A stretch of 64,000 nucleotides of DNA, taken from the sequence record MN850639.1. One strand, 5' to 3'. The position numbers and the translations under genes are program-made. Source of the stretch: Escherichia phage radambza. Of the stretch, positions 17,492-45,137 are shown piece after piece (positions within the stretch are counted from its first letter, which is position 1; the number at the start of each line of letters is the position of its first letter). Under the pieces are notes generated by a model that was given only the letters and a program-made list of their open reading frames with translations, had not been told where the DNA came from and made no database searches.

Positions 17492-17497
17492 AATGTT

Positions 17498-17573: not shown

Positions 17574-17580
17574 ATTAATT

Positions 17581-17915: not shown

Positions 17916-18003
17916 CGGTAAGTAAAGGAGTCGAACCCTCACCGTATCTCTACAGTGGCAACTGTTTTCAAGACAGTTTGGCTACCATTAGCCGCTACCT
18001 ACC
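17916..18003 (-). tRNA. tRNA-Ser (anticodon TGA), type II, CCA not encoded
   Basis: Acceptor GGTAGGT/ACTTACC, perfect anticodon stem ACTGT/ACAGT loop ctTGAaa, long variable arm. Confidence 0.65.
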
Positions 18004-18016
18004 CCTAATAAGACTT

Positions 18017-18099
18017 TGGCATGGGACGGAGGAGTTGAACCCCTTTGAAACGGTTTTGGAGGCCGTTGCTCATGCCTTAGAGTCTTAACATCGTCCCAT
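18017..18099 (-). tRNA. tRNA-Trp-like (anticodon CCA) with enlarged D region
   Basis: Perfect acceptor ATGGGAC/GTCCCAT with encoded CCA, T-loop TTCAACT, anticodon loop ctCCAaa; 26 nt between acceptor and anticodon stem instead of about 19. Confidence 0.45.
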
Positions 18100-18242
18100 A
18101 CTATAATTCGAAGCTTACCGTATTATCTCAACACTGTAAAGCCCCTTCTCAGATTATTTACATGTTCTGGAAAACATGAGATACAGACCACCTCCTTACA
18201 CGGAGACCCGATAAGGTCGTCTAAGCAATCTGCTAACTAAAT

Positions 18243-18324
18243 TGGTCGAGGCGGCAGGACTCGAACCCGCATACTCCACTTACTCGGTTAACGGCGGTTT
18301 AGAAGACCGCTGAGATACGCCCCG
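18243..18324 (-). tRNA. tRNA-like element, atypical (anticodon-like loop TCT; no recognisable D arm; 23-nt variable region)
   Basis: Acceptor CGGGGCG/CGCCTCG, T-arm GCGGG/TTCGAGT/CCTGC, encoded CCA, perfect stem GCGGT/ACCGC with loop ctTCTaa, but only 7 nt between acceptor and that stem. Confidence 0.35.
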
Positions 18325-18572
18325 TAATTATCTTTAAAGACTCTCTTAGAAAGCCCTTAAAGATGCCCACTTTATTAATCATACCGTGGGCGAGTACGCC
18401 AAATTCTTTGATGAGGGATTGGAAGACCTCACTGGTGTTTAGCCTATCAAGCTACTGCCAGAAAAACATTGTCGTTTGCATTTATTTTAAATTTGCAAAA
18501 TAGACGCTACGCAACGAAAACTAAGGTTACTATAAAGTAGTCACATCTCAATGTCAACAACTTTATTGAAAG

Positions 18573-18647
18573 TGGTTGTAGGTGAGGGTATCGAACCCTC
18601 TTCTAACGGTTATCAGCCGTTTGCATTACCATTTATGCTAACCCACA
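18573..18647 (-). tRNA. tRNA-Ile (anticodon GAT)
   Basis: Perfect anticodon stem AACGG/CCGTT loop ctGATaa, T-arm GAGGG/TTCGATA/CCCTC, encoded CCA. Confidence 0.7.
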
Positions 18648-18649
18648 AT

Positions 18650-18726
18650 TGGAGGTTCAGGTGGGAATTGAACCCACATTCATAGGGCTTATGAAACCCT
18701 TGCATTACCTTATCTGCGACTGAACC
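18650..18726 (-). tRNA. tRNA-Met (anticodon CAT)
   Basis: Perfect acceptor GGTTCAG/CTGAACC, anticodon stem AGGGT/GCCCT (three G-C pairs) loop ttCATaa, T-arm GTGGG/TTCAATT/CCCAC, encoded CCA. Confidence 0.65.
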
Positions 18727-18730
18727 ATAT

Positions 18731-18806
18731 TGGTAGAAGTGGAGGGATTCGAACCCATCGCCTGTCAGATTAAAAGTCTGCCGCATCACCATTCTGCTAC
18801 ACTTCC
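18731..18806 (-). tRNA. tRNA-Lys (anticodon TTT)
   Basis: Acceptor GGAAGTG/CACTTCT, anticodon loop ctTTTaa, encoded CCA; paralog of 17498-17573. Confidence 0.6.
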
Positions 18807-18810
18807 ATTA

Positions 18811-18954
18811 AATTATCTTTGTAGATAAGCTACCCAGACTTGCTTAAGGTCTGTAGCGATGTGCCTTTTTGGGTTTAAATCTAGAATTTACCCTTTCACC
18901 CTTTGTGGTCGCATACTCACAGGTAAGCTTAATAACTTATCTACAAAGATAATT
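18811..18954. repeat. perfect 19-bp inverted repeat pair (18811-18829 and 18936-18954) flanking a 106-bp spacer
   Basis: AATTATCTTTGTAGATAAG and its exact reverse complement CTTATCTACAAAGATAATT; internal hairpin CAGAC-ttgcttaag-GTCTG. Confidence 0.6.
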
Positions 18955-19005
18955 ACCAGACCGTTGTTTATCATCTTAAGTGCTACCATTACACCAACTC
19001 GACAT

Positions 19006-19031
19006 CTGCCGAGTGAAGGAATCGAACCTTC
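19006..19031 (-). pseudogene. tRNA 3'-half-like fragment (T-arm plus acceptor 3' strand, no 5' partner)
   Basis: Perfect T-arm GAAGG/TTCGATT/CCTTC but no complementary acceptor 5' strand or anticodon arm within 100 nt. Confidence 0.3.
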
Positions 19032-19234
19032 GCCTTTTCTTTACCGAGAAATAGATTGTTTAAGTTTTGCTGTAAACGGTCTTCTGTAAATTTGTTGAGC
19101 CAGACCAAGTTTTAGATTTTCAAAATTAAATTGGCTTGAAATTTCATACGTTCTTGCTGTATTTGGTCTTCTGCTCCTTTAAAGAATACTCGTAAGAACT
19201 CTTTAAGGGAGGGGCTAAATAGCCCTCTCAAAAT

Positions 19235-19310
19235 TGGCGAGGTATGCGAGAATCGAACTCGCGGCTCAGGAGAGACAATCCCGTATTTTACCCATCTAAA
19301 CTAATACCCC
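19235..19310 (-). tRNA. tRNA-Asp (anticodon GTC)
   Basis: Acceptor GGGGTAT/ATACCTC, T-arm GCGAG/TTCGATT/CTCGC, anticodon loop ttGTCtc, discriminator G, encoded CCA. Confidence 0.7.
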
Positions 19311-19314
19311 AAAT

Positions 19315-19743
19315 TCATGTACCATTTCTTAGATACTTCTTCCTACGTCTTTCTGGACTATAGTTTCTTCTACTCTCAGCATTCTTAGCCAGCCTACACT
19401 CATCGCATCTACAGCCTTTAAAATAGCTATACGCAGTTCCGTGTTTAATTGTTTTATGTTTTCTTTCACTTATCTGTGCTGGTCTTGCTGCTTTCATGTT
19501 ACATTTAAGATGACTATAAGAAATATTATCTAGTGAAAAGAAAAGCTCTTTTGCATTCTCACTATGTCTCCACGGAATCTTATGCTCGATAGAGAAATCA
19601 TCCCTAGTCATTTCTTTTCCGCACTGAAAACATCTATTTTGATTTGTCTTACATATAAAATCGAATAGCAAATCTTTTACTAGTCTGTTTTGTGCAGTTC
19701 CCAAACTCATACCAAGTTGTGATTTGTATACTTCATCTCTCAT
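19315..19743 (-). CDS. HNH homing endonuclease
   Basis: CFQCGKEMTRDDFSIEHKIPWRHSEN...SHLKCN HNH motif; ORF-track start at 19836 overlaps tRNA-Tyr, trimmed to ATG at 19741-19743. Confidence 0.75.
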   Translation of the reverse strand: MRDEVYKSQLGMSLGTAQNRLVKDLLFDFICKTNQNRCFQCGKEMTRDDFSIEHKIPWRHSENAKELFFSLDNISYSHLKCNMKAARPAQISERKHKTIKHGTAYSYFKGCRCDECRLAKNAESRRNYSPERRRKKYLRNGT

Positions 19744-19765
19744 AACTAAGTATCTCGCTAAGTGT

Positions 19766-19853
19766 TGGTGTGCCGTGTAGGAGTCGAACCTACCGAGTCT
19801 CAATGACAAGGGATTTACAGTCCCCACCGCTACCATCTACGGGATAACGACAC
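19766..19853 (-). tRNA. tRNA-Tyr (anticodon GTA), type II
   Basis: Acceptor GTGTCGT/ACGGCAC, anticodon stem GGGGA/TCCCT loop ctGTAaa, long variable arm, T-arm GTAGG/TTCGACT/CCTAC, encoded CCA. Confidence 0.7.
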
Positions 19854-19864
19854 ATTTAATTTTG

Positions 19865-19938
19865 CGGTTAGTCAGGGATTCGAACCCTGTGCCATTCGCT
19901 TAACAGGCGACCGCACATACCTTATGTGCTTCCTAACC
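19865..19938 (-). tRNA. tRNA-Asn (anticodon GTT), CCA not encoded
   Basis: D-stem GCAC/GTGC, anticodon loop ctGTTaa, T-arm CAGGG/TTCGAAT/CCCTG. Confidence 0.6.
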
Positions 19939-20022
19939 ATATTTAGTATTACCAGACCGTATCTTTCAATTTTTTCCGCTAAAAATTTAATAAATGTTGC
20001 TGTAAACGGTCTTCTGTAAATT

Positions 20023-20099
20023 TGGAGGCGGGTGCAGGAGTCGAACCTGCCGATACCATGCTAATGAGACATGTGAGACGCCCTTTCTCTATACCCGCA
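20023..20099 (-). tRNA. tRNA with CAT anticodon (Met, initiator or Ile-lysidine type), unpaired 1:72
   Basis: Anticodon stem CATGT/GCATG loop ctCATta, T-arm GCAGG/TTCGACT/CCTGC, encoded CCA; first acceptor position U opposite C. Confidence 0.6.
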
Positions 20100-20190
20100 A
20101 TTCTTAATGACCAGACCAAATCTCTTCTTTGTCCGATTTACCTTCAGATGAATAAGATTAAGTTTGCTGTAATTGGTCTTCTGTCAAAAC

Positions 20191-20268
20191 TGGCGTTCCA
20201 GAAGGGATTTGAACCCTCAAATATCCACTTTGAAAGAGTGGTGACTATACCATTTTGTCTACTGGAAC
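20191..20268 (-). tRNA. tRNA-Glu (anticodon TTC)
   Basis: Perfect acceptor GTTCCAG/CTGGAAC, perfect anticodon stem CCACT/AGTGG loop ctTTCaa, encoded CCA. Confidence 0.7.
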
Positions 20269-20275
20269 ATTAATT

Positions 20276-20352
20276 TGGTCTCTGTTGGAGGACTTGAACC
20301 TCCGGCCTTACCGCCCCAAACGGAACGCTCTACCAAGCTGAGCTAAACAGAG
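20276..20352 (-). tRNA. tRNA-Pro (anticodon TGG)
   Basis: Perfect acceptor CTCTGTT/AACAGAG, D-stem GCTC/GAGC, anticodon loop ttTGGgg, T-arm GGAGG/TTCAAGT/CCTCC, encoded CCA. Confidence 0.65.
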
Positions 20353-24016: not shown

Positions 24017-24894
24017 TTAAAGCAAAGACTTACCCAGACTTCAAAGAGTTTGTGAAGGGCTTCGTTGCGAACGTAAAGGCTGGTAAGAGATATGATTTTA
24101 GAACATATCAAGAGGCTATTTTACCACTTACCTATAGTTCGTATTGGCCTGAAGCTGATATTGCAGAAGTTAAGAAGTTTGACTACAAACCAGACTACAA
24201 AGTTCCATTTAGTGATGAGTTGCTTTACAGCGTTGGTGCTCAAATGAGAACGTCTGACTTCTTCATGGACTTACAATATGCAATTATCAATGGTAAAGAC
24301 GTTGATACAGTTTATTGTGAATGGCTGGCAAGAGTTAAACCGTTCTCAATGTTGAATGCTAAGTTGAAGGATGCTATCAAGCCACCATCAATCACTCAGC
24401 AACCAACCAATCAAACAGTAAATGAAGGGGGTACACTTACCCTAAGCGTTATTGCAACTAATGCCACTGGATATCAATGGAAAAAGGATGGTGAGGACAT
24501 CCCTAGTGCCAATTCTGCAACTTACACAAAACAGTCAGTAGCACCTTCTGACGCTGGTTCATACACTTGCGTTGTAACAGGTGCAGGTGGTTCTGTTACT
24601 TCTAGCCCTGCAACAGTTACTGTGAATGCACTTCCGGTAATCACTCAGCAACCAACCAATCAAGAAATCACTGAAGGTGAGACCTTAACACTGAATGTTG
24701 TGGCAACAGGTGCGACAGGTTATCAGTGGAAGAAAGGTGAGGAAGTCATCCCAGACGCAACTGCTGCAACTTACACCAAAGAAGGTGCAACCGCTGCTGA
24801 TGCAGGAAGCTACACCTGTGTAGTGACTGGCGCAGGTGGCTCTGTAACATCTAATGCGGCAACAGTTACAGTTAACCCAGCAGGGGAGGCATAA
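24013..24894 (+). CDS. protein with duplicated N-domain plus two tandem Ig-like repeats
   Basis: 293 aa; two roughly 90-aa repeats ITQQPTNQ...TGATGYQWKK...AGSYTCVVTGAGGSVTS; ATGA overlap with upstream gene. Confidence 0.65.
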   Translation: MIKAKTYPDFKEFVKGFVANVKAGKRYDFRTYQEAILPLTYSSYWPEADIAEVKKFDYKPDYKVPFSDELLYSVGAQMRTSDFFMDLQYAIINGKDVDTVYCEWLARVKPFSMLNAKLKDAIKPPSITQQPTNQTVNEGGTLTLSVIATNATGYQWKKDGEDIPSANSATYTKQSVAPSDAGSYTCVVTGAGGSVTSSPATVTVNALPVITQQPTNQEITEGETLTLNVVATGATGYQWKKGEEVIPDATAATYTKEGATAADAGSYTCVVTGAGGSVTSNAATVTVNPAGEA

Positions 24895-30629: not shown

Positions 30630-31850
30630 TCTACCCTTCTTAACAACCTTCTTAAGCTTACTCTCTATATATAGTTATATAGTACTATATAGTATCTTAG
30701 TATCTATCTAGTGGTCTTAATAGCCCCTCTGTATAAACCTTCTAAACACTCTTCTAACAAGCCTTCTTAACAACCTATACAATCACCTTAACCATCCCTC
30801 TACACCCTCTTAGAAGCTCCTATACACCTCTTAATCTCTATGTCAGCTATGTTACCCTCTATAGGTGTTCACTAGGTATTACTAAACCTCTATATAGACT
30901 GTTTTAACAAACTTAACAGGAATATCTTTACAGACCTTATCTCACAAGGTCTAACACGGTACTAACAAGGTATCTTATAAGCCTGTTATTACCTGTATTT
31001 TTAAAAGGCTGTATAGGTAATTATTCAGAATCTTAAAATTTTTATAAAATAGGACTATCAAGTCATTTTTTAGGGTCTTTGAAGGAACTGAAAAATATCT
31101 GTAGAGGATGTATATCTGCTTGGTAGCCCTTAACAGCTCCCTTACAAGTACTTTGCAAAATTTTAAAATATCCTTAACAATCTCTTAACAGTTCTCACAT
31201 CTTCTTAACAACTCTTCAAAGGTCTTAACAGTTTCTTAACAGAACTAACAAGGGCTTAACAGTTTTCTAGGGATTGGTAACAATACCAATTAACAAGTGC
31301 TGAATAGTCTTTACAGAGGCTTAACAGATGACTAACAAGAGCTAACAAGTTAATTTTAAAGAGTTATTTTGTTAAGATAATTAACAAGTTCCTAACAAGT
31401 GTTTAATCTTTTTAACAAGCTGTTAACATGGTCACTACTCTTTTCTTATCGTTCCCTTTCCTTTCTTAGTGATTCTTTAAACATACCTCTTAAAAGCTCT
31501 GTATAGCTCTGCATAACCCCTTTTAAGTCTCTTCCTAGTATCTACAGCCCAACTATACAGACACCTCTTTATAAGGCTTTACAGAAGCTTTAAAGGCTAT
31601 GTCAAAGACTCTTACAAGGCTTTTACGTGGTCTTAACAGAGATTTAACAAGGGGCTAACAAGTTGCTAACAAGTGCCTTAAAAGCATAACTATGTAGGAT
31701 TTGTTAAGAAATTGTTAAGAAAATGTTAAGGGGGCTAGCATTTACGTAACTTTTAAGCTACTTCAAAGTAACTTTTAAGCCCCTATAACATACTTTAAGA
31801 CACTAACAAGCCCTTTTTAGTTATTCACAAGATAGCTAACGAGATGATAA
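30630..31850. repeat. iteron-like array: about 30 copies of YTAACAR, densest at 31175-31430 and 31633-31720
   Basis: Motif starts at 31175, 31186, 31206, 31226, 31237, 31246, 31257, 31278, 31291, 31322, 31333, 31343, 31382, 31393, 31413, 31424; spacings mostly 10-11 bp or multiples; inverted copies TTGTTAAG at 31691-31720. Confidence 0.6.
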
Positions 31851-31986: not shown

Positions 31987-32153
31987 GTGGTTGCCCTTCC
32001 CTTTCGGGTTATGGGCTTACATTTAAGGGAAAGATTAAGTTGATTTGATAAAAGGCTATAGAGTAGACTATAGAGTTATTGCTTTTTAAGGTCTGGTAAA
32101 GTTCTGACTTGTTAGGTGGGTTTTAAGATTCTGGAAAGGAATTTGATAGACGT

Positions 32154-32176
32154 AAAAAAAGCCCCATTTAAGGGGC
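32154..32176 (-). terminator. rho-independent terminator at end of the minus-strand small-gene array
   Basis: Plus AAAAAAA then GCCCC-atttaa-GGGGC; hairpin then U-run on minus strand; second hairpin GGGGCT-attt-AGCCCC at 32190-32205. Confidence 0.55.
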
Positions 32177-32215
32177 TGTAAAGGTATCTGGGGCTATTTA
32201 GCCCCGTTGCGGCGT

Positions 32216-32464
32216 TTAGTTAGTGCCTTCTTTGTCGTAGTACAGGGAGACAATTTTTTCACCCCAGTAGTGGTATGTATAACCCTCTTTGAGAGCTTCC
32301 TGTTTTGTTTCTTTCCAGAATTCATCAGAGGGGTTGTAGTCACTGATGGTCTGGCTGATAAGGCCTTTCACCATTTCAAAGGCGTTATCAGTACCTACAA
32401 GGTCAAATTTAACGTCCAGAGAGTAGAAGCCAAATTCGTTAACAGTTGCGCGGATAGTAGCCAT
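32216..32464 (-). CDS. small hypothetical protein (cassette gene 1)
   Basis: 82 aa; ATG preceded by the conserved leader. Confidence 0.55.
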   Translation of the reverse strand: MATIRATVNEFGFYSLDVKFDLVGTDNAFEMVKGLISQTISDYNPSDEFWKETKQEALKEGYTYHYWGEKIVSLYYDKEGTN

Positions 32465-32569
32465 TTTTGAATCTCCAGTTTAGGAAGTTGATTAAGGGTT
32501 TTATTTAGTGGGGAAGGTCATTCCCTCCCCGTTGATTGACAATTTACAAACTTTTGATTGTCTCGTCAA
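32465..32569 (-). promoter_or_regulatory. conserved promoter/leader cassette, type A
   Basis: Minus strand TTGACG-17nt-TAAATT, leader hairpin GGGGAGGG-aatga-CCTTCCCC (G-U pair), then GGAGATTCAAAAATG. Confidence 0.5.
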
Positions 32570-33119
32570 TATCTTTTTCAATATCTTTTAAAGTTTTTTC
32601 TAAGTTCTTGATATTGAAAGATAAGCCTTCCCCCAGTGTCTTAGAGTAACCGCTAGGACGTGAGTCATAGAGTTCGATTTCTTCCACTTCGAAGAGGCTA
32701 ACCAACTCACCGCTTACACTGTAAGCCATTGAAACAGTATTTACAGGGGCTTTATAGAACTTGTTTAAAGACTTGATAGAACGCTCGTAAGCCATTTTAT
32801 AGCCATTTAAAAGGTCTTTAACGTGGTTACGAACGTTTTTACACTCATCTAAGTAAATCTCTAAGAATAACGGTAATAATTCTGCTACAGCTTGCATAAA
32901 GTGAGAGACTACAACGGTTGCAACATTACGACGATGGATATAATAAGCCCCGTTTTCTGATTTGGTGATGGTTGCAAAGTGTACACCGTTGCAGCGGAAT
33001 TCATAGGTATCTTTAACAGGCTTAGACATTACAGCATTTGAGCGAATGTAGTTGATAGCTCGAAATTTGTTCATTTTTGAATCTCCTAGTTTAAGGACTT
33101 TGTTTAGTGGGGAGGTCAT
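32544..33119 (-). CDS. hypothetical protein (cassette gene 2)
   Basis: 191 aa; ATG preceded by conserved leader. Confidence 0.55.
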   Translation of the reverse strand: MTSPLNKVLKLGDSKMNKFRAINYIRSNAVMSKPVKDTYEFRCNGVHFATITKSENGAYYIHRRNVATVVVSHFMQAVAELLPLFLEIYLDECKNVRNHVKDLLNGYKMAYERSIKSLNKFYKAPVNTVSMAYSVSGELVSLFEVEEIELYDSRPSGYSKTLGEGLSFNIKNLEKTLKDIEKDIDETIKSL

Positions 33120-33166
33120 TACCTCCCGTTGATTAGTAATTTACTTGTTTTGATATCTGATTGCAA
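33120..33166 (-). promoter_or_regulatory. conserved promoter/leader cassette, type A variant
   Basis: TTGCAA-17nt-TAAATT, hairpin GGGGAGGT-cattac-CTCCC with stem changes that keep pairing. Confidence 0.5.
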
Positions 33167-33295
33167 GCAATTTTTTAAGTTTATCTATAAAGAATCTTTT
33201 AAGTTAATCCCTTTTAGATAAACCCCCTCGAACAAATCTACCAATGTCAAGGGGCGTTGTCAATACTTTTTTGAAAGTTTTTTGTAAGTTATTGA

Positions 33296-33637
33296 TTAAC
33301 TGATGAATATTTTTTCAGGTTTTACATAGCTGATACGCTGACTTTTTAGCAGGTCATCCCAGATTAACGCGGCGATATGGGCATAACCGGATTCACGTAA
33401 TAACTTCATCGTTTTACATCTCGTTTCAAATCGGGTTGCGTAGAACTCGCTGTTTAAAGTCGTTTTCTTCCCTTCATTGTCTACATGGATAATCTGCATC
33501 ACTTGAAAGGGGCTTGTGTCCTCGCCTTTGTTCCACTGTTCAAAGTATTTTAGGCACTGCATAGGCGACATCTTATCACTAACCTGAGTTGACCAAGATG
33601 AACCCTCTTTATCAGTAATTACGGTTACATAAGCCAT
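33296..33637 (-). CDS. hypothetical protein (cassette gene 3)
   Basis: ORF-track start at 33682 trimmed to ATG at 33635-33637 (MAYVTVITDK...) set by the conserved leader. Confidence 0.55.
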   Translation of the reverse strand: MAYVTVITDKEGSSWSTQVSDKMSPMQCLKYFEQWNKGEDTSPFQVMQIIHVDNEGKKTTLNSEFYATRFETRCKTMKLLRESGYAHIAALIWDDLLKSQRISYVKPEKIFIS

Positions 33638-33730
33638 TTTTTGAATCTCCAGTTTAGGATTTTGTTTAGTGGGGAAGGTCATTCCCTCCCCGTTGATGTG
33701 TAATTTACAGATTTTTATCAGGCTTGTCTA
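33638..33730 (-). promoter_or_regulatory. conserved promoter/leader cassette, type A
   Basis: TAGACA-17nt-TAAATT, hairpin, conserved SD context. Confidence 0.5.
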
Positions 33731-33961
33731 GTCTTTTTCTATAATTATTTCATATTGACCGTCTACACTATCGAAATAGATACCATCTTCATCTTCTGTC
33801 TTAAAGTAACATTGTATGTCATCACTGGCGGGATAGTCTTGTCTTGCTATCTGGCAAACTTGAATAGCATTTTCTTTACTTCCTGTAAACTCCTCAAGCC
33901 CTTTAAAATCACATGAATGGCCATTACAAATTGAGAGGATGAGATAAACGGTTGTTAGCAT
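33728..33961 (-). CDS. small protein with hydrophobic N-terminus (possible signal peptide)
   Basis: 77 aa, MLTTVYLILSICNGHSC...; no conserved leader; preceded by hairpin GCCCC-tacaa-GGGGC at 33980-33994. Confidence 0.45.
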   Translation of the reverse strand: MLTTVYLILSICNGHSCDFKGLEEFTGSKENAIQVCQIARQDYPASDDIQCYFKTEDEDGIYFDSVDGQYEIIIEKD

Positions 33962-34027
33962 GATTTAAGCCCTCTAAAAGCCCCTACAAGGGGCTAATCA
34001 GTGTTTATAAGGTGATTGTGTAGGTTT

Positions 34028-34570
34028 TTAGAAAAAGCTCTTTAAATCCTCTTCTGCGATGTTTCCCGTTAGTGTGTCCATGATGTCACAAAAAACCTGA
34101 ATACTGTCCGACTGTTGGACACTTTTAGCAAGAAGCTCCAGAGACTCATCAAGATAATTTAAATTTGGGTTATCCAATGAAGGAAGACAAAAAGGCGAAT
34201 ACATAGCGTTAAACTCTGTTACGTAAACCTTTTTAATCCAATTTAAATCGAAGTATTCTGTAAAACTTGCTACGCCAGACATATTATCACAAGAATAATC
34301 GTCATTTAGGTCATCCTCTGGGATATCAAGTTCTAAGATAACAATATTTTGGGTTTTCATCTGGAAAGCGGCCGTAATAGTGGCATTACCTAACGCTTGC
34401 TGGATACCTTCAGAGATTATCTCTTCCTCATCGTCGCCATAGATTTTATTTTCTGGGTACACGTAAAAATTGCCGTCCATATCCGAACAATTCCATGCAC
34501 CTGATGGCTTGTCACCGTTATTAATCAGGTTGAGGAAATTTTCTTGGGTAGTTCCGTGATAGCATTTCAT
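34028..34570 (-). CDS. acidic hypothetical protein (cassette gene 4)
   Basis: 180 aa; ATG preceded by conserved leader. Confidence 0.55.
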   Translation of the reverse strand: MKCYHGTTQENFLNLINNGDKPSGAWNCSDMDGNFYVYPENKIYGDDEEEIISEGIQQALGNATITAAFQMKTQNIVILELDIPEDDLNDDYSCDNMSGVASFTEYFDLNWIKKVYVTEFNAMYSPFCLPSLDNPNLNYLDESLELLAKSVQQSDSIQVFCDIMDTLTGNIAEEDLKSFF

Positions 34571-34652
34571 TTTTGAATCTCCTAGTTTAAGGATTGAGTG
34601 ATTAAGCTCTTTATCTGGGGCTTAAGATATCAACTTCCAAGCCCCCTGTAAA
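34571..34652 (-). promoter_or_regulatory. conserved promoter/leader cassette, type B
   Basis: TTTACA-17nt-TATCTT with hairpin GGGGCTT...AAGCCCC overlapping the spacer. Confidence 0.45.
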
Positions 34653-34657
34653 GTACT

Positions 34658-34861
34658 TTATTTGTTATTTTTGACAACTTTTAAAACTGCAAGATAACCT
34701 AAGCAATAAGAATCACCGAAGAGAGTCCTACCCATGAAAGAGTCCTCTTTGATATCCTTTGCAGTGACAGTTTTCTCTACGCCGTGGGAAAGGACTACAT
34801 CACCAACTTTAATATCTTTGATGTGAGTTGTTTCAATGTGTAAGCCGTTAATAATAGCCAT
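34658..34861 (-). CDS. small hypothetical protein (cassette gene 5)
   Basis: 67 aa; conserved leader. Confidence 0.5.
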   Translation of the reverse strand: MAIINGLHIETTHIKDIKVGDVVLSHGVEKTVTAKDIKEDSFMGRTLFGDSYCLGYLAVLKVVKNNK

Positions 34862-34952
34862 TTTAGAATCTCCAGTTTAGGATTTTATTTAGTGGGAAGG
34901 TCATCCCCTTCCCGTTGATGTGTAATTTAATCTATCTAAAAACCAGTGTCAA
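34862..34952 (-). promoter_or_regulatory. conserved promoter/leader cassette, type A
   Basis: TTGACA-17nt-TAAATT, hairpin GGGAAGGGG-atga-CCTTCCC. Confidence 0.5.
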
Positions 34953-34961
34953 CAAAATTTT

Positions 34962-35366
34962 TTAGAGTTCTGCATAAATTGCATCACAGACATCGCGAAA
35001 ATCATGATTTGTCAAATTACGTTGTAACCAAGTGGCAAAGAAATCAGCGATTGCAAAATTAGCGTCATACTCGACAGATAACCATACTTTCACGGCAAAT
35101 CGAAACATTTTTAAATCAAGCTCTTTATTCATTACCTTCGATTTGCCTAACATGTCAGCCATTTCATATTGCGCACCGTCTAGCGTGATACCTGCTGCAA
35201 CGTCAGCCAATGAACTTTTTACGTTTTCAACGTCTAAGATAACGCTTTGAATCTTTCCGATAATGTTGTGCAATGTTTCATCAGGCGCTGATGACGTCAT
35301 GATATTGATTCGATTAACGGTCAAGCGTGCTTTTAAGATTGATAATTCACGGTTATTAATAGCCAT
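34962..35366 (-). CDS. hypothetical protein (cassette gene 6)
   Basis: 134 aa; conserved leader. Confidence 0.55.
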   Translation of the reverse strand: MAINNRELSILKARLTVNRINIMTSSAPDETLHNIIGKIQSVILDVENVKSSLADVAAGITLDGAQYEMADMLGKSKVMNKELDLKMFRFAVKVWLSVEYDANFAIADFFATWLQRNLTNHDFRDVCDAIYAEL

Positions 35367-35446
35367 TTTAGAATCTCCAATTTAGGATTGAGTGGTAAAG
35401 TTCTTTATCTGGGGCTTACTTTATCGAACTATAAGCCCCCTGTAAA
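35367..35446 (-). promoter_or_regulatory. conserved promoter/leader cassette, type B
   Basis: TTTACA-17nt-TAAAGT embedded in hairpin GGGGCTTA...TAAGCCCC. Confidence 0.45.
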
Positions 35447-35451
35447 GTACT

Positions 35452-35724
35452 TTACACTAAATGCAGTTTTTTACCTTTTACTATAATGTAACTCGATGCA
35501 CTATTGCTTTGCACATCCTGATAAATTCTGCGCAAACGGCCTTCATAGTGTACTTTCCAACTGGTTGGAATCTTTTTACCGTATCCGGTAGCAGTTTTTT
35601 GGAGTCCTGCGACTTGCCAATCTAAGATATGTTGTTCAGCTTGTAAGTCTTCAAAGTGCATGACACCATCTACATAGTGACGTAGTGTGACATTTAAAGT
35701 GCGACCGTTGTTAGTAGTATACAT
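35452..35724 (-). CDS. small hypothetical protein (cassette gene 7)
   Basis: 90 aa; conserved leader. Confidence 0.5.
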   Translation of the reverse strand: MYTTNNGRTLNVTLRHYVDGVMHFEDLQAEQHILDWQVAGLQKTATGYGKKIPTSWKVHYEGRLRRIYQDVQSNSASSYIIVKGKKLHLV

Positions 35725-35816
35725 TTTAGAATCTCCAGTTTAGGACTTTATTTAGTGGGGAAGGTCATCCCCTTCCCGTTGATGTGTAATTTAATCTATC
35801 TAAAAATCAGTGTCAA
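35725..35816 (-). promoter_or_regulatory. conserved promoter/leader cassette, type A
   Basis: TTGACA-17nt-TAAATT, hairpin, SD. Confidence 0.5.
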
Positions 35817-36145
35817 GAATTTTGTTTTCGTTTGCTCAACTCTTGAACAATTACAGCATGATAGTCTTTCAAGTCACTGATGTTTAAAGCATTTATCAGA
35901 GAATTATAATCATCAACTAACTGAAAATCATCTTTGAAGATGTCACTTATCTGATAGGTTTTGGCTTTATATCTGAAGCTCATCTCTAGCCGCTTTATTT
36001 GCTCATCACTGAGACGTCCTAGAAAGCTTTCTACAAGGTTATTGCTAACCTGCTGTGTGATTGCCTTATTTGCTAGATTATAGGCTTTATATGCCTTATA
36101 TAGCGCGAAAATGGCAATGATTGCAGTGATACCAGTCATTAACAT
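35813..36145 (-). CDS. small membrane protein (N-terminal TM)
   Basis: 110 aa, MLMTGITAIIAIFALYKAY...; start overlaps upstream stop. Confidence 0.5.
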   Translation of the reverse strand: MLMTGITAIIAIFALYKAYKAYNLANKAITQQVSNNLVESFLGRLSDEQIKRLEMSFRYKAKTYQISDIFKDDFQLVDDYNSLINALNISDLKDYHAVIVQELSKRKQNS

Positions 36146-36435
36146 GGTGTTTCCTCTTTACGTGATACTTTGCCACTTACAGTTATCTCATAAGATTCTA
36201 ATAAATCGCTTTTAGACTTTACAGGGCTTTTAAAAGTATCATCGTAAATATTGACTTGCAATACAGGTTTTTTATACTCCCTGCAACTACTCCATAAGCA
36301 AATCACTACACGACGGCCTTTGATTTTTCCGTGTAACCATTCCATAACATCATGACTATTCCTTGATGTTTCAATGAAATCAATTTTATTAAGTAACTTG
36401 CTTAGATTTTCACGGACTTTATTTGATAGTTTCAT
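36139..36435 (-). CDS. small hypothetical protein (cassette gene 8)
   Basis: 98 aa; conserved leader. Confidence 0.5.
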   Translation of the reverse strand: MKLSNKVRENLSKLLNKIDFIETSRNSHDVMEWLHGKIKGRRVVICLWSSCREYKKPVLQVNIYDDTFKSPVKSKSDLLESYEITVSGKVSRKEETPC

Positions 36436-36515
36436 TTTTGAATCTCCAGTTTAGGATTTAGTGGTAAAGCTCTTTATCTGGGGCTTACTTTATCGAACTA
36501 TAAGCCCCTTGTAAA
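36436..36515 (-). promoter_or_regulatory. conserved promoter/leader cassette, type B
   Basis: TTTACA-17nt-TAAAGT embedded in hairpin; near-identical to the 35367-35446 element. Confidence 0.45.
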
Positions 36516-36523
36516 GTACTTTA

Positions 36524-36904
36524 TCAGTTAATTTTGAAGATTGTTACATAACCATCGCTCCCGATGATTTGTGATACTCCAGCTTTTTCTACTTGATAGC
36601 CCATATTTTCAAGATGATAAATAGCGTCATCGTAACCATATGCGCCACCCTGATAACGTCTCTTATCGCATCTTATCAGGTTTTTTCCACGCCCAGCAAG
36701 TGCATGTAGAATTGTTTTTTCACTTGAAAGAGTGCCATCTAACATGGTTGCCGTGTAATGGTTGATTTTATTCCCGTTGATATCATACTTAAAATTGAAC
36801 GAGTGAACAACAATCACATTACCTTTGAAATTTTCATCAAGTGACTTCTCCAGTACGCTACGAAAGTTGTCTTTGTTGATGAATTTAGGCGCACGATATT
36901 TCAT
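36524..36904 (-). CDS. hypothetical protein (cassette gene 9)
   Basis: 126 aa; conserved leader. Confidence 0.55.
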   Translation of the reverse strand: MKYRAPKFINKDNFRSVLEKSLDENFKGNVIVVHSFNFKYDINGNKINHYTATMLDGTLSSEKTILHALAGRGKNLIRCDKRRYQGGAYGYDDAIYHLENMGYQVEKAGVSQIIGSDGYVTIFKIN

Positions 36905-36997
36905 TTTTGAATCTCCAGTTTAGGACTTTATTTAGTGGGGAAGGTCATTCCCTCCCCGTTGATGCAAATACTAGATAACCCCGTTCAAAGAGTCAAG
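36905..36997 (-). promoter_or_regulatory. conserved promoter/leader cassette, type A
   Basis: TTGACT-18nt-TAGTAT, hairpin GGGGAGGG-aatga-CCTTCCCC, SD. Confidence 0.5.
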
Positions 36998-37123
36998 AAA
37001 AATTTTAAAAATATCTTTGGCAAAACTGTAATGAAACGGGCGCACACGACTACCACAAAACAGAACACAAATCAAGAATTATTTTTCAATCCGCTACAAA
37101 TTTTTCTCTTGACTTTTGGGGAG

Positions 37124-37352
37124 AGGGGGAGTAAGAGGGGGAGAGGGGTTGGTCTGGCTCTCTATAAAAACCTACCTGCACGATTCTAAAATGATTTTTC
37201 TTGCCCGACCTGAGCGGGGTCTGCACGTTTTGAAAATGAAAAAGCCCTTTGGAGATTACCTGCACAGTTTGAAAATGAATTTTCTCTTTGGAGTTCAAAA
37301 TTTTCTCTACAGATTTCTATACAGAACTCTACCTGCACAATCCTGAAATGAA
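37124..37352. repeat. intergenic repeat cluster: purine tract GGGGAGAGGGGGAG... and four copies of CTGCAC-N5-6-GAAAATGA
   Basis: Copies begin at 37176, 37221, 37260, 37333; two are followed by AAAAAGCCC. Confidence 0.6.
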
Positions 37353-37424
37353 AAAGCCCTCCTTACCTGAAAAATTTACCAGATAAGAAAGGCTTAGTCT
37401 ATTATGAATATTCTACAGAGTTTC

Positions 37425-38210
37425 TTAGTTCTTTGCGTCTAAGAAGGTAACTTCTGGTGAAGAGAAGATTGCCTCGATATCCTCATCAGTTCTTGCATAG
37501 ATATAAGCTTCTGCATCACTACCAAATGTTACAGCAATTCTGTGATTGCTCTTCGACAGGTGGGTAACTAGAGCGTTGCTTAGAGACATCTTTTCAACCG
37601 GAGGGTTACTTTGATGTATCTTACCTTTTCTTCGTCTGAAGAGGGTAACTGCATTATCCGTGAACACTGCTACACCTGCAAAGTATCCTGGCTCACAGTA
37701 GTTTTTCCAACCTGAGAGTAACTTGTGGTACATATCACCTTCATAGACATACAGATAGACATCTACACTCTTCATCACCTGATTGATGATAACTGTGACA
37801 GCTTGAGGGTCAAGTCCACCGATACCTGCACCAATCATAGGTAGACCGACTTTCTTCAACTGATTCACTTCACAGTATCTGTTAAGTTGCTTCAAAGATG
37901 ACTCTAAAGCACTGTATCGGGCATCTTTACCAGTCTTAAGCTGAGTGTAAAGGTTAGCTATACGACCTTGTTTTAAGCGTGCTACAGAGAAATTACCTAG
38001 TAAATTCTCACAAGGTTTGTGACCTATACCACCTGCATAGAGATAAACTTCTGTATCGGTCTCATATGCTTTTGGGTAAAGTTTAGAAATCTTGTCAGCG
38101 ATACCTGCACCCATTAGGTTCATGCAGTTACAACCATGACCAATGATGTCAAACTTACCTTTATCAAATGCAGCAAAGATATCACCATTGATGATTTTTA
38201 CAATACCCAT
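37425..38210 (-). CDS. macro domain protein (ADP-ribose binding/processing) with C-terminal extension
   Basis: 261 aa; N-terminal GDIF...DIIGHGCNCMNLMGAGIA and VGLPMIGAGIGGL are macro-domain glycine-rich motifs. Confidence 0.7.
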   Translation of the reverse strand: MGIVKIINGDIFAAFDKGKFDIIGHGCNCMNLMGAGIADKISKLYPKAYETDTEVYLYAGGIGHKPCENLLGNFSVARLKQGRIANLYTQLKTGKDARYSALESSLKQLNRYCEVNQLKKVGLPMIGAGIGGLDPQAVTVIINQVMKSVDVYLYVYEGDMYHKLLSGWKNYCEPGYFAGVAVFTDNAVTLFRRRKGKIHQSNPPVEKMSLSNALVTHLSKSNHRIAVTFGSDAEAYIYARTDEDIEAIFSSPEVTFLDAKN

Positions 38211-42691: not shown

Positions 42692-42770
42692 CTTATTACT
42701 CTCTCTTGTTAGTTAATAAATCATTTTGTGATGCTATTCTAAGGGGCTTCAAAGCCCCTTGTCAAACACT

Positions 42771-45137
42771 TTAATCGTAAATTGTAGTCCCTTCTGGAAC
42801 ACACTTCACATCAAAGCCTAAGAACTTACTCACTTCGATAGGCGACACTTTATTCCAATCTAAATGAGAAAGCAAGAAGTTTTCTTGTTTTCTTTTTGAA
42901 AGGTAGTTTGTCACCTTAATGACCATGCGGTCACCAGCTTTCTTAATTTTCTTGTAAAGCTTTGTATCATTGTCAAGACAGTCTTTCAAAGTTTTCAATA
43001 CACTAACAGTATAAGTGTATGCAAATGGTGCAGCAACGTATTGGATTTTACCGAACATTGCCTCTACAGCATCTTCATTGCCTTCTAGGAAGATAGTTTT
43101 GTTAGTATCTCGTGAATAGCAATAACCACGAGAAATCTTCCTGTTATTGAATGTAAAGTTTCTGGCGATAATCCAACTGCTTGTAAGGTCAAGAACACCA
43201 TTCATATAGATACGTGTCATATACCTGTTATGATTAATCCAGTGAACATCAGTTAAGCTGTCGTTCAAGAGCTTCTCATCTACTTCAATCCAGTCTTCTG
43301 GTATCTTTTTCCAATTTGCTTTTCGGAAAACATAGACTGTCTTCCCTAGAACATTAGCGACTGACTTAGCTACATCTTCTGGAGATGAGCAAAAACATTC
43401 GCCATCAACTGTGTCACCAACTGCCTTAATGTAAAGCTGAGGTTCTTCAATTGTATCAAAGTCCTCTGAAACCTCTTTATAGGAAGCTACACCTTCTGCT
43501 GGAACAGCTTTCCAGAGTTTTACAACACCCCTTACAGCTTCTTTGCGCTGGTAATGGTGCTCCTTATCAGACATTTTCACAATCTTTAACAAGCTTTTAT
43601 CAAGTTTGTGTAGGTTGATTAAGTCATCTAGCTCTTTTTCAGTCGAGAATACAAACACAATACCATTGTATCTGTGAAACAGACTTGACTCGTTGGCGTA
43701 GTCTCGACATGCACCACGCAAGATTTGATTGCGTCCTACAGTCTTCTCAGTTCCGTTTTTATTGCGACGGTCATTAATCACGAACAAAAACTGTTCAATT
43801 TGGCTTTTACGCATTGCACCAAAGATATTGAACATACTTGCCTCTTGAGTGTAGGAAAGTGCTGTTGCACGAATCTTACTCTCTAAAGAGTTGAACTTGA
43901 CATAAGCAACTGGATTGTATAGGTAGTCCACTTTAGGAATGTTGTTTCCTTTACTGTCAACCTTAATATTACCTTTACCGTCACGTTCATAAATGACTGA
44001 GCCGTCTTCTGCGTAGATAATCCCACGACGAATGTTTAGCAATTCTTCTTCCAGAGAATCAAGCTTAACGCCTCCCCACTCTAGCTTTGGACACACAGCA
44101 TTAAACATCTCTCGTGAGTTCAAACGTAACTCAGCATAAGCCTGTGCAGCATCCATGAGTGTAGGTTGGCTATTAACTTTCTTGATAACATCCTTTGTAA
44201 TGGCTTCAGTTATCTTTTTAGTAGCCTCAATGATAACATTTTTTGTCGTGTCATTCATCTGCAATGCTTCACGAGAAGCTGCAATAGCAACTGAACCAAT
44301 AGGCATGTAGATGTTTACAAGGTCTACGCTCCTACGGAAAAATTCTGGCAATACTTTGAAGAAGTCATCACCAAGTAATGCTTCCATGTTAACAGGGTAG
44401 GAAATGTTACCCATCACCACATTAAACTCTGTCCTGTTACCACTAGAACGCCAACTTTGCTTATGAATCATGGCATCATAAACACCCTCTTCACGGGCAA
44501 TGACGTTCATATCTGCTAATACATCGTCGTACACAATATTACTTTCTGGTTTTACAGCAAAGTATGAGTATACATTACCAGCTTCTTCAAAGAACTTTGA
44601 GATACGGTGGTCAGCAACTGCCACACGTACAGCTAAACCATTAGGTTCTTTTGTTGGGTTAGTTGTCAGCTTAGTTACTTGAGGGATACCATTCTCAAGG
44701 TAAACAGAGTACTTATTAACAACACCATCAACATAGCTAGATACTGTGAATGACTGAGCAATTGCAAATGGTGACTTTGAGCCGATACCCATTGCACCAA
44801 TGTAGTCATTGGAGTCATTCTTTGTAGAAGCCCCATAGTTCAGATACAAACTCATTACTTTGTCATGGGTTAAACCAGTTCCAAAGTCACGGACTTCAAA
44901 GTAAGGCTCAAATCGAGTAGGTAAATGCACATGGAATGGGATGTTCTCTTTTCCAGCTTCTTTTTGAGCATCTACTGCGTTACATGACAGTTCACGAATC
45001 ACTGCCCTTTCTTTGAATGTGTATACACCTGAACTCAAAAGGCTGAACATTTCAGGTGTCATTGTAATCTGTGCTTGAGATGTCTCCAAAGAAGTTGAAC
45101 TCTTAATCACTTCTGCGTGGTCGTTTACCATGCGCAT
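42771..45137 (-). CDS. rIIA: rIIA protein (N-terminal GHKL/HATPase-like domain)
   Basis: 788 aa; ELSCNAVDA ... VRDFGTGL ... GAMGIGSKSPF Bergerat-fold motifs; rIIA-rIIB gene order. Confidence 0.85.
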   Translation of the reverse strand: MRMVNDHAEVIKSSTSLETSQAQITMTPEMFSLLSSGVYTFKERAVIRELSCNAVDAQKEAGKENIPFHVHLPTRFEPYFEVRDFGTGLTHDKVMSLYLNYGASTKNDSNDYIGAMGIGSKSPFAIAQSFTVSSYVDGVVNKYSVYLENGIPQVTKLTTNPTKEPNGLAVRVAVADHRISKFFEEAGNVYSYFAVKPESNIVYDDVLADMNVIAREEGVYDAMIHKQSWRSSGNRTEFNVVMGNISYPVNMEALLGDDFFKVLPEFFRRSVDLVNIYMPIGSVAIAASREALQMNDTTKNVIIEATKKITEAITKDVIKKVNSQPTLMDAAQAYAELRLNSREMFNAVCPKLEWGGVKLDSLEEELLNIRRGIIYAEDGSVIYERDGKGNIKVDSKGNNIPKVDYLYNPVAYVKFNSLESKIRATALSYTQEASMFNIFGAMRKSQIEQFLFVINDRRNKNGTEKTVGRNQILRGACRDYANESSLFHRYNGIVFVFSTEKELDDLINLHKLDKSLLKIVKMSDKEHHYQRKEAVRGVVKLWKAVPAEGVASYKEVSEDFDTIEEPQLYIKAVGDTVDGECFCSSPEDVAKSVANVLGKTVYVFRKANWKKIPEDWIEVDEKLLNDSLTDVHWINHNRYMTRIYMNGVLDLTSSWIIARNFTFNNRKISRGYCYSRDTNKTIFLEGNEDAVEAMFGKIQYVAAPFAYTYTVSVLKTLKDCLDNDTKLYKKIKKAGDRMVIKVTNYLSKRKQENFLLSHLDWNKVSPIEVSKFLGFDVKCVPEGTTIYD

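Follow-up and report, generated by a model that had tools for sequence, protein, structure and literature searches.

Putative early-expression cassettes resembling the PeSLs of T4-type phages in a small-gene island of a Felix O1-type phage

The closest described counterparts of the elements reported here are the promoter-early stem-loop elements (PeSLs) of the T4-type phages RB49/phi1, PST/T4 and nt-1/KVP40 (Arbiol et al. 2010, PMC2839356; Comeau et al. 2014, PMC4122927). For PeSLs, promoter and terminator activity (in reporter assays) and minicircles have been shown (PMC2839356, PMC4122927), whereas for the present cassettes promoter activity is a prediction from sequence. The authors of the PeSL work also drew a likeness to integron gene cassettes (PMC2839356), and it applies here insofar as single promoter-proximal accessory genes are exchanged as units via a repeated structured site. 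In contrast to integrons, an integrase and an attC-type site are absent, and the exchange fits general homologous recombination.

Other phages offer partial parallels. Lambdoid morons are accessory genes that come singly, each equipped with a promoter and a transcription stop signal, as additions to a conserved backbone; they have no conserved flanks, and their acquisition is generally attributed to illegitimate recombination, whereas in the present island the conserved flanks are themselves the crossover sites. Morons are also discussed by the authors of the PeSL work (PMC2839356). The host-takeover module of SPO1, located in the terminal redundancy, and the pre-early region of T5 comprise many small early genes of unknown function near a genome end and have strong ribosome sites and several strong promoters of the host type. 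The present island lies outside the terminal repeat, in contrast to the SPO1 module, and we know of no comparable repeated hairpin cassette in SPO1 or T5. In the T7 early genes, RNase III sites are imperfect hairpins of about two helical turns between short cistrons, without embedded promoters; the type B hairpin described below is likewise imperfect, of similar length and located between short cistrons, with cleavage being putative. Start-associated sequences of Cluster K mycobacteriophages are conserved 13-bp motifs directly upstream of many start codons that lack an attached promoter or G/C hairpin and have, to our knowledge, no link to gene shuffling.

In every feature testable by sequence, the cassettes match the PeSLs in architecture and behavior. 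Both are composites of about 100 bp that include an AT-rich region, a sigma-70-like promoter, a G-tract/C-tract stem-loop, and a Shine-Dalgarno (SD) site with ATG. In both, the register of the stem-loop varies (it may follow the -10, overlap the hexamers or lie between them), the element fills the space between the stop codon of one gene and the start codon of the next, and the copies are clustered in a plastic region before ORFans, with indels between close relatives and crossovers within elements. However, the present cassettes occur in Ounavirinae rather than a T4-type phage, have a long leader and SD common to both hairpin types, include a hairpin of about 20 bp extended around the whole promoter (type B), and form a single island adjoining the terminal repeat. 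They have no detectable sequence similarity to PeSLs: sensitive blastn searches with both cassette types against 50,697 phage records gave Ounavirinae-type matches only, with no T4-type phage. Given the lack of homology and the Ounavirinae lineage, the resemblance is one of kind and not of descent. Earlier work went no further than listing the elements as direct repeats or as pairs of a predicted promoter and terminator.

Layout of the island and its cassettes

The window, i.e. the whole stretch of 64,000 nt analyzed here, derives from Escherichia phage radambza, a Felixounavirus of the Ounavirinae (Felix O1-type phage). All nine elements reported on its minus strand by the first-pass annotation were located at their claimed places, and were classified into six type A and three type B cassettes at positions 32462-36996 (Table 1). 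An nhmmer search of the 64-kb window recovered the same six type A and three type B cores, every one in the island. The 3' motif CCTAAACTGGAGATTCWAAAATG has seven matches at up to three mismatches versus none expected from 100 shuffles, and the two remaining copies (ATG at 34570 and 33074) carry its indel variant CCTTAAACTAGGAGATTCAAAAATG. The unit of about 95 bases consists of a promoter, a hairpin and a ribosome site. All copies are in direct orientation and have identical stretches of 16-30 nt in common. A leader of 35-45 nt ending in GGAG is common to both hairpin types, and all nine cassettes end with GGAG, about 8 nt and ATG.

These nine cassettes serve eleven ORFs and not nine as initially claimed, the extra ones being the 110-aa ORF, which lacks a cassette, and the 77-aa ORF, which has its own SD. 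The ORFs were described as having no recognisable function; consistently, none of the ten tested (the 77-aa ORF was left out) has a Pfam domain and all ten belong to PHROGs of unknown function. Their role in host takeover or anti-defence is a conjecture. The terminator scan found one canonical terminator at either end of the island and none on the sense strand inside it. Even at E <= 1, no Rfam family matched within 32000-37500, and matches at the gathering score across the whole window were tRNAs only. Since 31122-31735 matches the terminal repeat of phage Pr103Blw, the island, which adjoins this repeat but is outside it, lies 0.5-5.9 kb from a physical genome end.

Table 1. Features of the cassette island and its surroundings (all on the minus strand; window positions)
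Feature	Position	Promoter (-35, spacer, -10)	Hairpin, start codon and remarks
Upstream boundary	37354..37395		Canonical terminator-like hairpin 3' of the macro-domain gene (terminator scan)
Eleven small ORFs	32216..36904		126, 98, 110, 90, 134, 67, 180, 77, 113, 176 and 82 aa
110-aa ORF	35813-36145		Overlaps its predecessor (ATGTTAA)
77-aa ORF	33728-33961		Preceded by a weak terminator-like hairpin
Cassette 1, type A	36902..36996	TTGACT (36996-36991); TAGTAT (36973-36968)	Hairpin GGGGAGGGAATGACCTTCCCC 36957-36937; SD GGAG 36916-36913; ATG 36904-36902
Cassette 2, type B	36433..36523	TAAAGTACTTTACA including TTTACA (36515-36510); TAAAGT (36492-36487) in hairpin loop	Stem GGGGCTTA/TAAGCCCC, then CAGATAAAGAGCTTTAC and SD; ATG 36435
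Cassette 3, type A	35722..35817	TTGACA-17-TAAATT	Hairpin GGGAAGGGGATGACCTTCCCC; ATG 35724
Cassette 4, type B	35364..35454	TTTACA-17-TAAAGT	ATG 35366
Cassette 5, type A	34859..34953	TTGACA-17-TAAATT	Hairpin GGGAAGGGGATGACCTTCCC; ATG 34861
Cassette 6, type B	34568..34660	TTTACA-17-TATCTT	Stem GGGGCTTGG/(C)TTAAGCCCC including G.U pairs; ATG 34570
Cassette 7, type A	33635..33730	TAGACA-17-TAAATT	ATG 33637; stop TAG of upstream gene within -35
Type C element	33222..33263	TTGACA-17-TAGATT	Stem CCCCTTGA/TCGAGGGG around -10; third promoter and hairpin kind
Cassette 8, type A	33072..33167	TTGCAA-17-TAAATT	Hairpin GGGAGGTAATGACCTCCCC; ATG 33074
Cassette 9, type A	32462..32570	TTGACG-17-TAAATT	Leader 13 nt longer; ATG 32464
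Downstream boundary	32160..32215		Degenerate cassette remnant CAACGGGGCTAAATAGCCCCAGATACCTTTAC, then canonical terminator AGCCCCTTAAATGGGGCTTTTTTT (32177-32160 in the terminator scan)
Terminal repeat counterpart	31122..31735		Matches short direct terminal repeat annotated in phage Pr103Blw (87% identity, 617 columns)

Promoter signals and hairpins

The family-wide set includes 146 cassette copies from 16 loci, and promoter information profiles were calculated for the distinct copies, 64 of type A and 60 of type B. Both profiles are sigma-70-like, with TTGaca-17-TAAAtT for type A and TTTACA-17-TAnnnT for type B; information peaks at the TTG of the -35 and at the T, A and last T of the -10, and is low in the 17-nt spacer. 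In type B, the middle bases of the -10 are free and the surrounding loop is otherwise variable, while TTTACA is invariant at 17-nt spacing in all 60 distinct copies. The spacer is also 17 nt in all nine window cassettes. For type A, the first-pass annotation gave TTGACA-17-TAAATT; its spacing is correct for six of six copies, but exact TTGACA occurs in only two (the others are TTGACT, TAGACA, TTGCAA and TTGACG) and one -10 is TAGTAT. The hexamers reported for the three type B copies (TTTACA-17-TAAAGT or TATCTT) are as stated. The A+T content is 68-85% in the 25 nt preceding each -35 and 61% in the window. In seven of the eight cassettes with an upstream ORF, the stop codon of that ORF falls at -26 to +9 nt relative to the -35; in the eighth it is 129 nt away. 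In Felix O1, RT-PCR placed ORFs 16, 20, 21 and 22 of the island among the genes maximal at 5 min, and these end-point data revealed no link between cassette type and timing (PMC3185647).

Hairpins occur in three registers: downstream of the -10 (type A), around the spacer and -10 (type B), and around the -10 with reversed polarity (type C). The type A hairpin lies about 10 nt after the -10 and is thus 3-6 nt from the 5' end of its own predicted mRNA; it is also contained in any transcript coming from upstream. The leader of cassette 1, for instance, folds at -17.9 kcal/mol (z -2.6). Type A stems were claimed to vary while keeping their pairing, and these stems, of 5-8 bp, do pair in every copy; however, covariation of the arms is not significant (117 of 2000 arm-swap permutations were as good), because nearly any G-tract arm can pair with any C/T-tract arm. 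The claimed sense-strand preference is observed for all six window hairpins, owing to one G.U in the consensus GGGGAGGG/CCTTCCCC, and holds as a bias over 30 distinct variants (22 sense, 7 antisense), much of it due to this one inherited G.U and thus to few independent events. None of the nine cassettes has a U-tract after its hairpin and the terminator scan listed none of them on the sense strand, so these hairpins are not canonical intrinsic terminators.

The type B promoter was described as embedded in a hairpin. Compensatory changes agree with this, although the length of the hairpin was underestimated: its three segments total about 20 bp, surround the whole promoter and reach from the upstream gene's stop codon to about +15. 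It therefore cannot be present in RNA started at that promoter. In the upper stem, 94.6% of cells are paired versus 89.4% in shuffles (0 of 500 as good), with both sides changed in three of nine pairs. The corresponding values for the extended 20-pair structure are 96.1% and 93.1% (0 of 500), and slid registers reach at most 56%. One lower-stem pair changes from G-C to U-A in five sequences, although these are related and the same pair is broken in two others. As the middle stem overlaps the -35, its invariance is uninformative. The sense strand is more stable in 45 of 60 type B copies, and the full read-through fold of cassette 2 (-24.7 kcal/mol, z -4.36) was equalled by none of 200 shuffles. 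The hairpin is conserved in Erwinia Kolesnikvirus, and CAGATAAAGAGCTTTAC is near-invariant, Erwinia phages included.

Exchange of gene modules among relatives

The first-pass annotation proposed modular cassettes flanking swappable genes, analogous to PeSLs, and suggested comparing related phages for cassette gain and loss. The 16 loci agree with this proposal in their whole-module indels and chimeric junctions, as does the sigma-70 profile. The island is collinear among relatives, with whole modules present or absent; upstream of the macro gene lies a cassette-free block that is syntenic. Cassette type follows the neighboring gene families, especially the upstream one: the entropy of type is 0.992 bit, falling to 0.035 given the upstream family and 0.142 given the downstream family. 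Comparison of the loci shows that the promoter/hairpin half remains attached to the gene preceding it, and the leader/SD half to the gene that follows. All six junctions dissected, including the F17>F5 junction of the window itself, are clean chimeras with switch points in conserved cassette segments. The same comparison shows the cassettes as apparent sites of homologous recombination by which whole gene modules are deleted, inserted or re-joined. Most differences in gene content are readable as deletions, and insertion via cassettes is putative: F25 is the one family found displaced, and its members at different positions share only 40% identity.

Proposed function and alternatives

In the reading that we consider likely, each of the nine elements is a self-contained cassette for early expression, of the same kind as the PeSLs. 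Each would provide a promoter for host sigma-70 RNA polymerase with an AT-rich region upstream; a stem-loop with G-tract and C/T-tract arms, best folded in sense-strand RNA; and the common leader of 35-45 nt with GGAG, about 8 nt and ATG. The type B hairpin would form only in RNA arriving from upstream. The hairpins may act as boundaries at which the upstream message is attenuated, ended or protected, and the promoter would restart transcription past this boundary, so that each gene would be insulated as a unit and would carry the same translation signals as the others.

A tentative alternative, rather less probable and compatible with early-expression cassettes, is that the island is transcribed mainly into one or few long early RNAs, with the hairpins, above all that of type B, serving as RNase III-type processing and 3'-end-stabilising sites between cistrons, as in the early region of T7, and the promoter-like hexamers being secondary or weak. 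From the upstream stop codon onward, the extended type B hairpin spans about two helical turns interrupted by internal loops, G.U pairs favor structure at the RNA level, U-tracts are missing, and the island has one strong predicted first promoter with canonical terminators only at its two ends. However, type A stems are too short for RNase III, and processing alone does not explain the invariant T/A...T pattern of the -10 in an otherwise free loop, or its 17-nt spacing to an invariant TTTACA.

Another model, which we regard as distinctly unlikely, takes the type B palindromes TAAAGnnCTTTA as sites at which a dimeric regulator, of phage or host origin, would bind and turn the promoters off or on, one palindrome over the -35 and the other at about +4 to +16. 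Each type B cassette indeed has two self-complementary 12-mers about 45 bp apart, five of the six TAAAGnnCTTTA sites in the window fall in type B cassettes, and the near-invariance of CAGATAAAGAGCTTTAC extends to Erwinia phages. On the other hand, in variant copies the two sites (TAGATTTCTTTA and TAAAGAGATTTA) both lose their self-symmetry but remain mutually complementary (G-C to U-A), so one long hairpin fits better than two operators; moreover, the motif is absent from type A cassettes and no candidate regulator was identified. It is highly improbable that the copies are small mobile or gene-converting repeats spreading through intergenic DNA without expression benefit, their promoter and hairpin features being incidental. 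High copy number in one region only would fit such repeats, as would the hairpin variant GGGAAGGGGATGACC, which is unique to the window and occurs in two different cassettes of one genome, suggesting intragenomic conversion. However, all copies have a single orientation, end at a start codon with fixed SD spacing, and mostly abut the upstream stop (7 of 8 with an upstream ORF). Their position-by-position conservation follows the sigma-70 pattern, target duplications and a transposase are absent, and gene order remains collinear.

The reading as early-expression cassettes can be extended to a joint one that we consider unlikely. Type B may be a dual-use module of 62 nt, conserved across at least three Ounavirinae genera, in which the same bases are a sigma-70 promoter in DNA and a processing or termination hairpin of about 20 bp in read-through RNA; if so, an incoming upstream transcript would be cut or stopped and the promoter spared occlusion. 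The island as a whole, in turn, may be an integrase-free, integron-like platform at the genome end on which genes for host takeover or anti-defence are exchanged. A tie to stepwise DNA entry may also exist: as the genes point toward the genome end, each would need its own promoter.

A third promoter-plus-hairpin element was missed in the first-pass annotation. This type C element (33222-33263) shares an intergenic region with cassette 8, upstream of it, and accompanies the F12>F3 junction in each of the 12 loci with that junction.

Cassette inventory and promoter anatomy

When region 32000-37500, which holds the minus-strand island of small ORFs, was searched with megablast, 256 phage records matched, nearly all of them Felix O1-like myoviruses of Escherichia, Salmonella, Shigella and Citrobacter, with Felixounavirus NRG857CP1 as the top match (90% identity). 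The tRNA cluster characteristic of Felix O1-like phages is present, with 23 Rfam tRNA matches. All nine upstream elements reported by the first-pass annotation were recovered on the minus strand. Type-specific core HMMs found six type A cassettes (promoter followed by a hairpin) and three type B cassettes (promoter inside a hairpin), all within the island, and only weak partial matches elsewhere in the 64 kb. The 3' motif CCTAAACTGGAGATTCWAAAATG had seven matches at up to three mismatches versus none in 100 shuffles, and the two remaining cassette 3' ends carry the indel variant CCTTAAACTAGGAG. The spacer between hexamers is 17 nt in all nine cassettes. The ORFs they serve had also been put at nine; the island holds eleven, including a 110-aa ORF that overlaps the preceding one and a 77-aa ORF preceded by a weak terminator-like hairpin.

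Sensitive blastn with one type A copy as query found 1098 places in 252 records, all of Ounavirinae type; one type B copy found 1341 places in 287 records, 29 Erwinia phages among them. Iterated nhmmer with the type-specific cores over the window and 15 related loci gathered 146 cassettes (80 type A and 66 type B), whose column information content matches the sigma-70 pattern. In type A, the TTG of the -35 and the T, A and last T of the -10 are near-invariant, the spacer is low in information, and the ATCAAC ahead of the hairpin is invariant. In type B, TTTACA is invariant, the -10 reads as T, A, three free bases and T within an otherwise variable loop, and CAGATAAAGAGCTTTAC past the hairpin is near-invariant, including in Erwinia Kolesnikvirus, whose copies have a different ribosome-site module. 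Sequence conservation strongly suggests that the cassettes function as promoters. Primary 5' ends would be predicted 6-8 nt past each -10, which for type A is about 3-6 nt ahead of the hairpin and for type B is the A of CCCCAGATAAAG. A likeness of AAAGTGCTTTACA to the T4 MotA box was rejected, since it lies 19 nt from the -10 and the TTTACA-17-TAnnnT geometry suits sigma-70; in the MotA consensus the spacing to the -10 is about 13 nt.

A third promoter-plus-hairpin element, type C, shares an intergenic region with cassette 8 and lies upstream of it. By blastn-short it was found in all 12 loci having the F12>F3 junction (ORF family F12 upstream, F3 downstream) and is missing where F12 is missing. 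Another promoter, with a hairpin in its spacer, stands upstream of a different gene and has a ribosome site unrelated to that of the cassettes; hairpins embedded in promoters may thus be widespread in this phage.

Coordinates of the island, its cassettes and associated features in the window
Feature	Position	Strand	Details
tRNA matches	15068-20352		Rfam
Palindrome	14811-14822		TAAAGnnCTTTA
Adjoining direct repeats	24390-24875		two 237-nt copies, 70% identity (family D3)
Terminal-repeat equivalent	31122-31735		581 bp in Pr103Blw
Degenerate cassette remnant	32160-32215	-	type A and type B parts mixed (CAACGGGGCTAAATAGCCCCAGATACCTTTAC)
Island	32462-36996	-	nine cassettes, which serve eleven ORFs
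Start codons, cassettes 1-9	36904, 36435, 35724, 35366, 34861, 34570, 33637, 33074, 32464	-	
Type C element	33222-33263	-	TTGACA-17-TAGATT; hairpin around the -10, its 5' arm a C-tract and its 3' arm a G-tract
180-aa ORF	34028-34570	-	
Cassettes sharing a type A hairpin variant	35722-35817; 34859-34953	-	GGGAAGGGGATGACC
Lead-in to island	36997-37425		non-coding; a ~22-nt motif present four times (minus strand TCATTTTCAnAAnnGTGCAGGTA)
C-rich tract of lead-in	about 37106-37140	+	plus strand reads GGGGAGAGGGGGAGTAAGAGGGGGAGAGGGG
Terminator-scan sites	37395-37354; 32177-32160		bracketing the island
Macro-domain gene	37425-38210	-	
Promoter with spacer hairpin	42729-42790	-	TTGACA-18-TAGAAT; GGGGCTT/AAGCCCC; TTAAAGTGTT ahead

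A 581-bp direct terminal repeat is annotated in Pr103Blw just downstream of the island. Its equivalent in the window places the island 0.5-5.9 kb from a physical genome end, transcribed toward that end, and implies that the assembly behind the window spans the physical ends, being either circularly joined or of concatemer type. In VpaE1, about 1.7 kb around the terminal-repeat region is non-coding. The last island ORF is directly followed by a degenerate cassette remnant and then by a canonical terminator. A G-quadruplex might form at the C-rich tract of the lead-in; this tract and the ~22-nt motif are each kept in most related loci. In Felixounavirus LF110P2 (L011, 3780-3852), the tract is fused directly to CAGATAAAGAGCTTTACC, and the first cassette has lost promoter and hairpin, so that what is left of it is the 3' half of a type B element.

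Hairpins of the two cassette types

The proposal that pairing is kept while stem sequences change is true of type A. All 30 distinct variants fold (5-8 bp, -5.6 to -15.1 kcal/mol), but the pairing did not hold up as covariation. Because indels put the arms out of register in the MAFFT alignment, an arm-swap permutation test was chosen, and its outcome was not significant: swapping barely alters stability (-11.31 native versus -10.96 swapped, with 117 of 2000 permutations as good), and kept pairing is therefore no evidence of covariation. The sense strand is the more stable in 22 of the 30 variants and the antisense strand in seven. Two different cassettes of the window share one hairpin variant that is found at none of the 15 other loci, a distribution that hints at exchange (conversion) between cassettes of a single genome. 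Also discarded was a candidate six-codon mini-ORF (ATGACCTTCCCCACTAAATAA) read from the type A loop: many variants, with GATAA loops, have no ATG, and the SD-like GGAGG lies too near it.

For type B, compensatory change was borne out in both the upper and the extended stem. The 9-bp upper stem has 94.6% of cells paired versus 89.4% in shuffles (none of 500 reached the observed value); three of its pairs are changed on both sides, including G-C to U-A in Erwinia phages, and slid registers collapse. When the whole cassette is folded as read-through RNA, its two TAAAG/CTTTA motifs pair with each other in a structure of about 20 bp in three segments (-24.7 kcal/mol, z -4.36). The same motifs could be read as two independent operator palindromes. 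Across 51 distinct sequences, however, the extended structure is 96.1% paired versus 93.1% in shuffles (0 of 500), with one lower-stem pair changed from G-C to U-A in five sequences and broken in two; the middle segment is uninformative because it overlaps the -35 and never varies. This pattern disfavours separate palindromes and favours, though not decisively, one long hairpin. Of 60 type B copies, 45 fold more stably as the sense strand. As the -10 sits in the loop, a transcript starting about 7 nt downstream would begin past the stem, so that the long hairpin could act only on RNA derived from upstream, or at the DNA level. The sole TAAAGnnCTTTA palindrome of the window outside type B cassettes lies just beyond the tRNA cluster.

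Inspection of the nine window cassettes found no U-tract after any hairpin, a terminator scan returned no cassette hairpin and only the two sites bracketing the island, and Rfam gave no match for the cassettes even at E <= 1. We infer that the hairpins could serve in insulation or attenuation, or in 3'-end protection; 5' capping could be the role of type A and RNase III processing that of type B.

Module exchange and likeness to PeSLs

The ORFs of all 16 loci were clustered into families for gene-order comparison. Upstream, the block that ends with the macro-domain gene keeps strict synteny and has no cassettes. Gene order in the island is collinear (F25, F20, F17, F19, F18, F5-F6, F9, F15, F24/F32, F10-F11, F12, F3, F23, F4) and loci differ by whole modules, as the idea of swappable small genes had anticipated; the island holds nine genes in Felix O1, about 20 in Mordin and 11 in the window. 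The sole displaced family is F25, found at another island position in Mordin. Its identity there is just 40%, so it was set aside as evidence for recent transposition or for gene insertion at new sites.

Cassette-type entropy is 0.992 bit, or 0.035 bit given the upstream family and 0.142 given the downstream family; F17 (5 A, 5 B), F12 (9 A, 2 B) and F32 (2 A, 1 B) stand behind either type. The rule that emerges is that the promoter/hairpin half moves together with the gene ahead of it, and the leader half with the gene that it precedes. Six junctions aligned to their putative parents are clean chimeras. In the F17>F5 junction of the window, the sequence through the loop is that of the Pr103Blw F17>F19 cassette and the remainder that of the F19>F5 cassette, with the switch within shared TAAGCCCCAGATAAAGAGCTTTACCACT; other switch points lie in CCCCACTAAATAAAGTCCT or TAAATTACACATCAAC. 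It is such comparison of sequences that shows a role of the cassettes in recombination.

Promoter-early stem-loops (PeSLs) of T4-type phages were defined as combining an AT-rich tract and a sigma-70 promoter with an SD/ATG and a G/C stem-loop that can take five registers; they stand ahead of ORFans in hyperplastic regions, where elements cross over with one another, act as terminators and promoters in reporters, and give rise to minicircles (PMC2839356, PMC4122927). The proposed analogy is upheld, as the cassettes have all PeSL features readable from sequence; they differ in sequence homology and in residing outside T4-type phages. Such features without homology point to the same kind of system arisen in a different lineage, and we file the array as one that would behave as PeSL arrays do without being homologous to them. 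PeSL-type modular shuffling would then reach beyond T4-type phages into the unrelated Felix O1 group, which is in wide use for Salmonella typing and biocontrol, and convergent evolution of one solution would be suggested, with accessory genes both exchangeable and independently expressed. The ~15 gene families gained or lost as units would be natural candidates for host-range, takeover or anti-defence functions, and engineering of these phages would gain from the cassettes both small natural parts (promoter, insulator, RBS) and recombination sites that can be predicted.

Earlier records, expression timing and gene content

The Felix O1 paper lists, uninterpreted, 57-bp and 39-bp direct repeats between genes 15/16, 19/20, 18/19 and 20/21, and states that transcription through the region and its temporal control are not understood; the array bears on how transcription crosses the island. 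The wV8 GenBank record marks DR_1 to DR_9, and the ASO1A record annotates a promoter and predicted terminator at type A sites. Neither the wV8 paper nor the comparative Felixounavirus paper discusses the repeats, and the Bas63 knockout preprint makes no statement specific to island genes or cassettes; the literature searched contained no paper naming both 'PeSLs' and 'Felix' and none joining Felixounavirus with RNA-seq and early genes. By RT-PCR in Felix O1, island ORFs 16, 20, 21 and 22 peak at 5 min and ORFs 17, 19 and 23 at 25 min (PMC3185647), a timing without relation to cassette type. SUSP1 gp010 and gp024, validated as essential unknowns in CRISPRi-ART (PMC11879866), were excluded as island genes because they lie in the structural module.

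The description of the ORFs as having no recognisable function agrees with searches of ten of them, none with a Pfam domain and all in PHROGs of unknown function. For the 180-aa ORF, whose homologues occur only in Ounavirinae-type contigs, a moderate AlphaFold model (pLDDT 67, pTM 0.63) gave weak Foldseek PDB matches, none at E <= 0.001. About the best 28 matches are almost all of ADP-ribosyltransferase fold, including CC0527, Tpt1/KptA, Rhs ART toxins, pertussis toxin S1, tankyrase and DarT, and near-invariant H5-G6-T7 and Y36/Y38 and invariant E80 lie on successive strands. The macro-domain gene directly upstream of the island belongs to an ADP-ribose-binding or -hydrolysing class.

Elsewhere in the window, two adjoining direct repeat copies form family D3. 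GU169904.1 (Staphylococcus phage SA1) and one Campylobacter record share ~90% identity with the island; since the hosts are unrelated, these look like mislabelled or contaminating Felix O1-like sequence.
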